This document shows positions 2,425-7,665 of a stretch of 64,000 nucleotides of DNA, in pieces; position 1 is the stretch's first letter, and each line of letters starts with the position of its first letter. The DNA lies in NCBI GenBank assembly GCA_052246995.1, contig JBQPWD010000002.1, forward strand, positions 75,307 to 139,306. Direction: 5' to 3'. A model generated the notes under the pieces. That model had not been told where the DNA came from and searched no databases. It worked only from the letters and a program-made list of their open reading frames with translations. The DNA is from Candidatus Bathyarchaeota archaeon (GTDB lineage Archaea; Thermoproteota; Bathyarchaeia; Hecatellales; Hecatellaceae). A program made the translations under genes and the position numbers.

Positions 2425-5400
2425 ATGAATCATGTTCTTCAAAACAAAACCCTAGCAACAATAACAACGTTAATCCTAATCATAAGCACCCTAGCAACCC
2501 TAACACCACTACTTGTGGCACATGGAGCAGCAGGAACAATAACAGCATCCCAAAGCACCTTCAGCGCAAAGGTGTTGTTGCAAATAACGGTAACAGACCC
2601 GGATGTGGCTGAAAAGGCTAGTGAGCAACTTGTATCAATAAGGACAGAATACACTGACAAAAACGAGGGATCTCAAGTAGTTTACCTGAATGCTTCTCAA
2701 GTAGTTGGTGGACAGTGGGTGTGCTGGGTAAGACCAACAGATAGTGCCCCTACCACGCCTGGAAATCCGCCACCCTTCTGGTACGAGGATGAAACCTACG
2801 CTACAAACCTATTACCTAAGGAACCTAAATCTGACACGGATGTTAAGTTTATCTATTTTGATGCCAGCGAAAACCAGGAGAGGGTTGTAACCGTAACATA
2901 TAAGGAGGTTAAGGGAAGTATTAGCCTCGACAGAACCGCCTACCCGATGCAGGGGAAGGTGTACATTACAGTTACAGACCCAGACATGAACGTTGACCCA
3001 ACAACTGTAGATGAAATATCAGCTACGAACGTAATACTTGATGTTGCAGGTCTATGGCAAGAAAATGTTAAGTTGACCGAGACAGGACCCAACACCCAAA
3101 CATTTAAGGGTTCCACTATTTTGCCTGTTAATCCTCCTTATTATACTTACGCCATGCCTGGTCAAAGAATAACTGTTACATACAGTGATCCTAAAGGAGA
3201 TGTTACCGCTTATGCCATTGTAACTGTTTCAACTGCTGAAGTAAGCCTTGACAAGGCTGTCTACATGGTGAATGATACTGCAAAAATAACCCTTGTTGAA
3301 CCTGACCTAAACAAGGATTCAGACAAAGCTGAATATGTGGAGGTTACCGTTAAAAGTGACAAACTAGGAGGATGTTTATACGTAAAGTTGGATGAAACAG
3401 GAAAGAATACTGGAAGATTTACCGGGACATTCAAGTTTGCAATAGAGCCAACTCCTGGAAGATTAAATGTTACTGCTAAAGATAAGGTAATAGTGGAGTA
3501 CACTGATCCTCTTACCGCCACTGGCGACAGGAGTGTTCTACGCACAGCCAAAGCTGACTTTACAACCAACACTGGTGTTGTATCGCTTGATAGAACCGTC
3601 TACTCACCCAACATGATGGGTTATATTACCGTTGTCGATCCAGACATGAACGTCAACCCTGATGCAATAGACTATCTAGGAACACCTGTAGCTCAAAGCC
3701 TAGTAACCGTCAACAGTGTTAAAGCTGATGGCACAACGGTGGATACTGAAAAGGTTCTTATGACGGAGTATGGTGGAACAAACACTGGAATCTTCGTTGG
3801 AAGATTCAAAACCAGTACAACCACCTCAGCACCAGGAAACATTCCAACAGTCCAAGTTTCCATTGGAGGAAAAATAAAAGTAACCTATACTGACCCAATA
3901 ACCGCTGATGGAGAGACAAACAAGGCAATTTCTAAGGAGGCAAGCATCCGTGCAACAACAGGCACCGTTGAACTTGGAAGACCAGTGTACTCACCAAACG
4001 TTCAAGTTACAGTTCGCATAACAGACCCAGACCTCAACCTCGACGTATACAGCAAAGATAAAATCGTTGTTGGAAAAGTAGGTGACAAATGGCAGTTAAA
4101 CATCACCAACAACATAGTCCCACCAGGGGTAACCCTTGGCGAATATACTGAAGCCCCTGTTGTGCTTTACTCAACAGGTTGGGATGGTACTTCAATAACG
4201 AACATCGAAGAAACTGATGTTAACACAGGCATATTTGAAAAAGTTGTTAATGCACATATAGGTAATGTTAAGGCTGGAGAAACATTGTACTTTAAATACA
4301 TAGACCCCGCCAACGAGATTGGAGTCCAGGAGCCTGTTGTGGCCTCAGCAAGACTTGACACCTTCACGGGAACACTCACCATAGATAAATCTGTTTACAA
4401 GGTTGGTGAAAAAGTTAAAATCACCGTTGTCGACCCAGACATGAACAAAGATCCAAAAGCTAAAGACAAGATCACTGACAGAGTCACGATTAAGAGCGAT
4501 ACCTCCCCCGGCGGACTTACAGTAGAACTTACGGAGACCGACAAAGATACTGATACATTTACAGGTGAAGTTAAACTTGTTACCGGTACACCAGGTACTG
4601 GTGAGCTTAAGGTTTCACGTGGAGACACTGTTACCGTAACCTACGAGGATCAGGAGACAGCTGGTGGTGGTGGAAAGCTAAAGATAACCGCAAGCGCAAA
4701 AGTTTACTCAAGTGATGGAAAAATAGAACTGGATAGGTCATCCTACTCACCATATGGTACGGTTAAGATTACAGTTACAGACCCAGACATGAACGCAGAC
4801 TCAGCTGTTGTTGACTCAATAGCTAAAGACCGTATAAGGATATACACTACAAGTGACCCATACGGCATTGAAGTAACCCTTAAAGAAACTGATGTTGACA
4901 CAGGCATATTTGAGGAATACGTTAAACTCGGCGATAAAACTGATGAGGCTGCAAAAATGTTGAAGGCAAGCCATGGTGATGGGCTTACAGCCGTATACAC
5001 TGAAGAGGCTGACGCTGCAGGAAAGAAAGACGTTGCAAGAATGGTAACAGCAAAAGTAAGCTATGTAACAGCAAAAATAAGTTTTGACAAAAGCTTCTAC
5101 CTTATAAACGAAACTGCAAAAATAACCCTTGTTGAGCCTGATGAGAATAAAGATGCCAAACTTGAAAACAGTGTTCAAATAACAGTAACATCAACAACAG
5201 ACCCAGCAGGAATTAGAATATCACTTACCGAAACAGGTAAGGATACTGGAATATTTGAAGGTAGTCTCACATTCACCACTGGACCATCAACCGGAACAAT
5301 GCTAAAGGTAACCAAGGGAGACACAATAACAGCAATCTACGATGATAGGTCGATAGAAGACTACCCAACCGTCACCGTAAAAAGAGTAACCGCCACAGCC

Positions 5401-5769
5401 AAGATAGGTGTTCCTGTAATTGCCAAACCCATAATCGCGGGCACACCTGTAGCCGCAGACCCAACCACAGGTGAACCGTTAACAGAGGTTGCGGCTGGAA
5501 GCATGGTTCTAATTTCAACAGCCATGACAAACACTGCGGAGGAAGACGTATCCATGCTTTACATTGTACAGGTTAAGGATGCAGCTGGACATGTGGTCTT
5601 CCTAAGCTTTATAAGTGGAACAGTCCCGGCAGGAAAAACCTACACCATGGGTATAAGCTGGACACCTACAGCCCCAGGAACCTACACCGTTGAAGTCTTT
5701 GCATGGAGAAGCTGGGATGAACCTGCACCACTATCAGATGTTGCAACAGCAACAATAACGGTAGTGTAA
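2425..5769 (+). CDS. large secreted surface (S-layer-like, SlaA-analogous) protein with about 8 tandem ~110-aa domains
   Basis: N-terminal hydrophobic signal/anchor (TLATITTLILIISTLATLTPLLVAHG). Repeated motif [VI]SLD[RK]..Y....I.V.DPDMN.D...ETG.NTG.F.G......Y.D recurs about 8 times; Thr/Val-rich; AAGGTGA Shine-Dalgarno before the ATG. Confidence 0.7.
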   Translation: MNHVLQNKTLATITTLILIISTLATLTPLLVAHGAAGTITASQSTFSAKVLLQITVTDPDVAEKASEQLVSIRTEYTDKNEGSQVVYLNASQVVGGQWVCWVRPTDSAPTTPGNPPPFWYEDETYATNLLPKEPKSDTDVKFIYFDASENQERVVTVTYKEVKGSISLDRTAYPMQGKVYITVTDPDMNVDPTTVDEISATNVILDVAGLWQENVKLTETGPNTQTFKGSTILPVNPPYYTYAMPGQRITVTYSDPKGDVTAYAIVTVSTAEVSLDKAVYMVNDTAKITLVEPDLNKDSDKAEYVEVTVKSDKLGGCLYVKLDETGKNTGRFTGTFKFAIEPTPGRLNVTAKDKVIVEYTDPLTATGDRSVLRTAKADFTTNTGVVSLDRTVYSPNMMGYITVVDPDMNVNPDAIDYLGTPVAQSLVTVNSVKADGTTVDTEKVLMTEYGGTNTGIFVGRFKTSTTTSAPGNIPTVQVSIGGKIKVTYTDPITADGETNKAISKEASIRATTGTVELGRPVYSPNVQVTVRITDPDLNLDVYSKDKIVVGKVGDKWQLNITNNIVPPGVTLGEYTEAPVVLYSTGWDGTSITNIEETDVNTGIFEKVVNAHIGNVKAGETLYFKYIDPANEIGVQEPVVASARLDTFTGTLTIDKSVYKVGEKVKITVVDPDMNKDPKAKDKITDRVTIKSDTSPGGLTVELTETDKDTDTFTGEVKLVTGTPGTGELKVSRGDTVTVTYEDQETAGGGGKLKITASAKVYSSDGKIELDRSSYSPYGTVKITVTDPDMNADSAVVDSIAKDRIRIYTTSDPYGIEVTLKETDVDTGIFEEYVKLGDKTDEAAKMLKASHGDGLTAVYTEEADAAGKKDVARMVTAKVSYVTAKISFDKSFYLINETAKITLVEPDENKDAKLENSVQITVTSTTDPAGIRISLTETGKDTGIFEGSLTFTTGPSTGTMLKVTKGDTITAIYDDRSIEDYPTVTVKRVTATAKIGVPVIAKPIIAGTPVAADPTTGEPLTEVAAGSMVLISTAMTNTAEEDVSMLYIVQVKDAAGHVVFLSFISGTVPAGKTYTMGISWTPTAPGTYTVEVFAWRSWDEPAPLSDVATATITVV

Positions 5770-5775
5770 TACAAC

Positions 5776-6564: not shown

Positions 6565-6576
6565 AGGAAAATGTAA

Positions 6577-7665
6577 ATGGAAAAACTTAAACCTAAACAA
6601 AAATTTTTTTTACCTGTTTTTACTCTTATCACGCTTACATTTATCCTGCTTTTATTAACATCCCCATCAGTTTTAGCCTACACAAGCACAATCATAATTG
6701 AAACAAATAAACAGTACTATAAGCTTGACGACCCCCTCCTAGTTAGCGGGGTAGCCTCACCCTACTCATCCTTAACAATACAGTTAATCAACCCTAAAGG
6801 TGAAAGAACAGCCATAGCTCAAGTTGAAGCTGACAGTAGAGGATGGTGGGGTCCTGTAGACATCTACCGCTTCTCAGCCAGAGATGTCGAGGGAGAATGG
6901 GTAATAAAGGTTTACCATGAAGGATGGTTTAACAAAACAGTATTTTTAGATCTATCCCCACCAACAATAAGCATCCTACTAAGCCCTGAAAAGAAAATCT
7001 ACAAAGATGAAGTTTTAACCATAATTATCTCTGGAAATGAAAGACTTGGAAAGGTAGTGGTAAACGTAACCCAAGCCAACCTTCCACAAAAAAGCCCAGA
7101 CGTATCCAGCGTAGACGGGAAAACATGGATTGCAAGATACCATATCCAGCCAGGTTTTGAAGGAATATCAACAATCAAAGTATACGCTGAGGACTTAGCA
7201 GGACATCCTGCAACATCAACCATAATCTTTAACGTTGACACAACCCCACCAAAAGTAGCAATAACAGAAATACCCGCAAAAACAGAATCAGCGTTAATCA
7301 AAGTTAAAGGAACAGTTAACGAACCTGTAAACTATGTTGAAATTTTCACTCCAGGTTTAACACCTGTAAAAACACCTGTCAACATAAAAACCCTAACATG
7401 GGAAGCTGAACTTCCCCTCTCCACAAGAGGAGACAACATAATTAGGGTTGTAGCTGTTGATGAAGCTGGAAACATAGGAGAAGACTCAAAAGTTGTCTAC
7501 TACGTTGAACCTTTAGAGGTTGTTAAAAACGAAATTAAAACTTTACGAGAAGACATAAACATACTTAAAATATTCATACTTACAGCAGCAGCATTATCAA
7601 TACTGGCAGCAGCATTCTCAATAATCTCAGTAATAACAATAACCAGAAGAATAGTTGTAAAGTAG
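6577..7665 (+). CDS. second SlaB-like surface stalk protein (paralog of 5776..6564): signal peptide, beta domains, short coiled coil, C-terminal TM
   Basis: Shares the N-domain motif LxIQLxNP....AxAQxEAD..G....GEWxxKxY with the previous gene; C-terminus EVVKNEIKTLREDINILKIFILTAAALSILAAAFSIISVITITRR. Confidence 0.6.
   Translation: MEKLKPKQKFFLPVFTLITLTFILLLLTSPSVLAYTSTIIIETNKQYYKLDDPLLVSGVASPYSSLTIQLINPKGERTAIAQVEADSRGWWGPVDIYRFSARDVEGEWVIKVYHEGWFNKTVFLDLSPPTISILLSPEKKIYKDEVLTIIISGNERLGKVVVNVTQANLPQKSPDVSSVDGKTWIARYHIQPGFEGISTIKVYAEDLAGHPATSTIIFNVDTTPPKVAITEIPAKTESALIKVKGTVNEPVNYVEIFTPGLTPVKTPVNIKTLTWEAELPLSTRGDNIIRVVAVDEAGNIGEDSKVVYYVEPLEVVKNEIKTLREDINILKIFILTAAALSILAAAFSIISVITITRRIVVK

Follow-up and report, generated by a model that had tools for sequence, protein, structure and literature searches.

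Organization of the three-gene locus

The analysed window, a stretch of 64,000 nucleotides from an uncultured Bathyarchaeia archaeon, contains three consecutive open reading frames (ORFs) between positions 2425 and 7665, all on the forward (+) strand like every other feature given here, and their arrangement was confirmed as the first-pass annotation had drawn it. The first ORF (P1, 2425..5769; 1114 aa) is assigned to an S-layer sheet, or "canopy", protein of the NmSLP family, the second (P2, 5776..6564; 262 aa) to a SlaB homologue predicted to form a coiled-coil membrane stalk, and the third (P3, 6577..7665; 362 aa) to a paralogous Ig-rich membrane stalk. The intergenic gaps measure 6 nt (P1-P2) and 12 nt (P2-P3). 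About 60 nt 5' of the P1 start lies TTTAAATA (2357..2364), a candidate archaeal TATA box at which a sigma-70 scan marked TTTAAA; its putative promoter role is assigned on the basis of the established archaeal TATA consensus. A probable Shine-Dalgarno-like element, AAGGTGA (2412..2418), is found 6 nt 5' of the P1 ATG, and an oligo-T run, TTTTT (7669..7673), begins 4 nt past the P3 stop and is a candidate terminator, oligo-T being a known archaeal termination signal.

The membrane-anchored proteins P2 and P3

P2 begins with a signal-peptide-like N-terminus, followed by an MG2-like β-sandwich head domain that is common to P3 (5881..6165; aa 36-130), a coiled coil of 12 uninterrupted heptads (6184..6429; aa 137-218), a C-terminal transmembrane (TM) helix located by hydropathy scan (6433..6501; aa 220-242), and a basic tail, RRIVAAAKALLAPKAPEKTA. 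The hydrophobic residues of the coil are spaced 4-3-4-3 along its whole length, and its two core positions are filled by L and by V or I, respectively. The likelier start codon of P2 is the ATG at 5794, which would give a protein of 256 aa, because GAGGTG precedes this codon and orthologues align from there.

The first-pass annotation had likened these proteins to SlaB by analogy. The likeness is real, and for P2 sequence comparison makes it one of true homology rather than analogy alone. First, whole P2 matches the NCBIfam SlaB model NF040788 with an E-value of 5e-28, at a bit score far under the equivalog cut-off of that model (98 vs 700), and the head alone, with the coil removed, matches it at collinear positions (E 1e-10). 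Second, P2 matches the S. acidocaldarius SlaB chain (PDB 8qox_B) with an E-value of 2e-9. Third, P2 aligns with Nmar_1546 in two collinear HSPs, and hhalign pairs its head with aa 35-117 of that protein (E 1.3e-5, probability 81%). Finally, orthologues from Methanomethylicia, Nezhaarchaeales, and Thermoproteota match the SlaB model with their heads only at 1e-17 to 1e-21, in two domains.

The Sulfolobales SlaA/SlaB system (PDB 8QOX, 8QP0) likewise joins a soluble lattice protein to a membrane stalk, and its SlaB follows the same plan of N-terminal β-sandwich domains, a coiled coil, and one C-terminal TM helix, with both the head and the coiled-coil/TM regions of P2 matching it. P2 differs in having one head domain where Sulfolobales SlaB has three, and a coil of 82 rather than 132 residues. 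Sulfolobales also have a second stalk paralogue (M164_1049 / Saci_1846; PMC6712394), whereas here the second stalk gene lies inside the operon.

P3 resembles P2 at both ends, with a signal-peptide-like N-terminus, a homologous head, one C-terminal TM helix, and a shared basic tail (RRIV..., reading RRIVVK in P3), as the first-pass annotation had described for the pair. Its ectodomain (6688..7503) consists of the head (aa 38-124) and two β-sandwich domains (aa 130-221 and 226-309), and is followed by a short amphipathic helix (aa 313-331, about 2.5 heptads) that leads into the TM helix (aa 332-356; together 7513..7644), AF2 predicting one continuous helix from 313 to 361. The AF2 model (pLDDT 85.5) shows a protein whose bulk is three β-sandwich domains, and Pfam returns Glucodextran_B and Big_3_4 Ig-like matches. 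Two extra Ig-like domains and a helix of about 19 residues thus stand in place of the long coiled coil, and it is Ig-like domains rather than a coiled coil that make up the P3 stalk as modelled. The coiled-coil segment that had been ascribed to both proteins is borne out for P2 and only weakly for P3, because the latter has so few helical residues and is mostly β-sandwich. Fold searches with P3 are not SlaB-specific, with macroglobulin and other tandem Ig proteins scoring equal or higher.

Alternatively, the sheet would have no second stalk, and P3 would be a membrane-anchored Ig protein in its own right, for instance a receptor, an assembly factor, or a spacer of the pseudo-periplasm, linked to P2 by no more than one common domain and cotranscription. 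The long coiled coil by which SlaB is defined is missing from P3, the P3 head alone matches the SlaB model weakly (E 0.0055), and the three-gene form with a second stalk is confined, among the loci compared, to a Hecatellales-like clade of Bathyarchaeia. In addition, the second SlaB paralogue of S. islandicus is unable to substitute for SlaB (PMC6712394). We nevertheless consider this alternative unlikely. The P3 head is conserved with the P2 head (40% identity over 81 aa, E 2e-15), P3 orthologues occupy the equivalent position in three compared loci (L001, L002, L005), and the P3-type clade stably adjoins the P2-type clade in at least four genomes. In H. orcuttiae the heads of the two stalks are 90% identical, which is expected if they have one common partner and suggests a shared binding partner. 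The estimated reach of P3 would also be about that of P2. We therefore favor P3 as a second stalk of the sheet.

The probable sheet protein P1

P1 opens with a predicted signal peptide (2425..2526; aa 1-34, with a putative cleavage site) that is its sole hydrophobic segment and that AF2 models as a helix of low confidence, in agreement with its earlier description as secreted; a hydrophobicity analysis of full P1 found no TM segment past it. The remainder is an array of Ig/MG-like β-sandwich modules. Seven tandem modules (modules 2-8, 2905..5415; aa 161-997) start clearly at aa 161, 268, 381, 510, 646, 762, and 880, and are preceded by a degenerate copy (module 1, 2533..2904; aa 37-160) that retains the TVTDPD and FIYFD motifs and scores up to z 8.3 against module 2. 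Pairwise Smith-Waterman comparison of modules 2-8 against shuffles gave z values mostly of 8-29, with two pairs involving module 8 lower (3.6 and 5.3). The positions of the motifs SLDR/K..Y, DPDxN, ETGxNTGxF, and Y.DP confirm the recurring signature noted in the first pass, and the estimate of about eight modules of 105-115 aa holds for the count once the degenerate copy is included, but not for the lengths, which are 107-136 aa in the clear seven, nor for the C-terminal domain (CTD), which is unrelated. Structure prediction, a check suggested with that annotation, gives an all-β P1 (pLDDT 87.8) of nine β domains.

Sequence and predicted structure together make P1 a full-length homologue of NmSLP, collinear along its whole length. 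NmSLP forms the S-layer lattice of N. maritimus, which has been solved in situ (PMC11153153). P1 matches PDB 8c8k_A with an E-value of 2.5e-49, with P1 616-1113 corresponding to NmSLP 1201-1733, and its N-terminal half alone matches NmSLP at 3.5e-21. A Foldseek search with the AF2 model places 8c8m_A at E 3e-55 and the best unrelated fold at 7e-22, a margin of 33 orders of magnitude. Both proteins are Sec-exported tandem Ig-like arrays with common motifs such as SLDR..(F/Y)P and DxxxNxDP, and both end in a homologous C-terminal domain. With 1114 aa in 9 domains, P1 is smaller than NmSLP (1734 aa, 10 domains), and the close sequence match lies mainly in its C-terminal half. Sequence comparison did not connect P1 with S. 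acidocaldarius SlaA, which is absent from the PDB matches of P1 at E<=1.

The same module occurs in bacteria. Kustd1514 (Planctomycetota) is an experimentally established, O-glycosylated S-layer glycoprotein of anammox bacteria (PMC5088730). P1 matches the NCBIfam model of this family over five stretches (E 1.3e-69), but its 235 bits against a family cut-off of 1400 indicate that P1 shares the module and is not a family member. The P1 repeat is thus the NmSLP-type Ig/MG-like module, which also builds Kustd1514, and the first-pass opinion that it matches no nameable S-layer domain is overturned. Both proteins are counted as S-layer proteins, the one in a bacterial and the other in an archaeal host, and we know of no SlaB-type partner for Kustd1514. 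A search of the available literature library found no paper joining Kustd1514 with P1-type sheet proteins.

The CTD (5416..5766; aa 998-1114), an Ig-like domain formed by the last 117 aa, is unrelated to the P1 modules (z about 0). Alone it matches NmSLP 1635-1733 (E 3.6e-16), corresponding to NmSLP domain 10, which is membrane-facing and unresolved in the NmSLP structure. Across the P1 family, conservation climbs from 0.20 for domain 1 to its highest value, 0.45, for the CTD. Of 138 representative proteins, 125 have this domain at the C-terminus, many of them lacking P1 modules, and its carriers include cupredoxins, a matrixin-like protease, and further secreted proteins. Because it is both the best-conserved part of P1 and portable at C-termini, the CTD is likely a docking module. 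The CTD is also fused to head-type domains in four proteins (P0154, P0145, P0185, P0253), although such fusions are only suggestive of interaction, since both are common Ig-like domains of secreted proteins. SLH-domain and cohesin-dockerin surface anchoring offers a functional analogy only, having no sequence or fold relationship to the CTD, whose partner is putative. In both cases a conserved terminal domain is common to a lattice protein and assorted secreted enzymes, suggesting a common envelope docking site.

The gene neighborhood ties P1 to SlaB. In every conserved locus the P1-like gene lies directly upstream of a SlaB homologue, and in 15 of 24 fetched loci, a set that includes some redundant copies of one contig, the ORF immediately after the P1-like gene matches the head profile. 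The pair recurs in at least four classes or orders (Bathyarchaeia, Methanomethylicia, Nezhaarchaeales, and Nitrososphaeria), while no adjacent SlaB-like gene was found within the sequence at hand for three loci from Bathyarchaeia and Nitrosopumilales (L006, L007, L012). Such a pairing of sheet protein and SlaB homologue is already on record for Nitrososphaerota, as Nmar_1547/Nmar_1546 of N. maritimus, in which the stalk gene likewise adjoins the sheet gene and its product has a coiled coil and a C-terminal TM helix behind a homologous head. The system is to that extent less novel than first held, differing from N. maritimus in its second, Ig-rich stalk gene.

These data bear on whether P1 is a lattice protein. 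It might be one of several surface-displayed Ig-repeat proteins, an adhesin or spacer tethered via its CTD, with the true S-layer gene elsewhere in the genome, since numerous secreted proteins outside any lattice carry the CTD, H. orcuttiae encodes at least two further CTD proteins (L019, L021) besides a full operon, and P1 is neither as highly charged nor as dense in sequons as NmSLP. Two traits of the sheet proteins of ammonia-oxidizing archaea are missing from P1. It has a net charge of about -45 without an N-to-C gradient, compared with -212 with a gradient in NmSLP, and it shows no enrichment of N-glycosylation sequons, with 5 observed where 7.7 are expected, compared with 17 glycans resolved on NmSLP (PMC11153153). 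However, the collinearity with NmSLP extends well beyond the CTD, size and domain count are conserved among orthologues (1045-1214 aa), and in each conserved locus the P1-like gene is the one directly upstream of the SlaB homologue. The first-pass annotation had named an adhesin or BIG-domain affiliation, with a separate S-layer gene, as a finding that would speak against a sheet. No such Pfam family claims the module, which draws only sub-threshold MG2 matches, and no other S-layer candidate was found in the 64-kb window. A mere adhesin or spacer is therefore distinctly improbable. Least probable is an S-layer that, as in ammonia-oxidizing archaea, would act as a sieve to concentrate cations or ammonium and would serve nutrient capture over structure, for although P1 is homologous to NmSLP and acidic as a mature protein (pI 4.6), it has no charge gradient and a net charge about five times lower, it finds its nearest relatives in Bathyarchaeia and Hecatellales MAGs rather than in ammonia oxidizers such as the NmSLP host, and no ammonia-oxidation genes were found among the ORFs scanned in the window.

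A proposed S-layer assembly

Observed homologies, domain architectures, operon structure, and gene-pair conservation make it likely that the three genes form an S-layer (cell wall) operon with P1 as sheet and P2 and P3 as stalks, in support of the complete sheet-and-anchor module first proposed. We hypothesize that Sec exports P1, P2, and P3, and that P1 then loses its signal peptide and is left with no anchor of its own. Its eight tandem modules would assemble into a two-dimensional outer lattice like that of NmSLP, and divalent cations bound to conserved acidic motifs probably stiffen or bridge this assembly. P2 would be anchored by its TM helix, with the 12-heptad coil, probably trimeric, forming a stalk of about 12 nm that brings the β-sandwich head against the underside of the lattice. 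P3 may reach a similar height, estimated at about 14-16 nm, through its two extra Ig-like domains and short helix. On the P1 side, the stalks most likely make contact with the conserved CTD, and the three proteins together would delimit a pseudo-periplasmic space.

With regard to stalk oligomerization, a V/L heptad core alone does not specify trimers. H. orcuttiae encodes a collagen-like stalk variant, which points to trimers.

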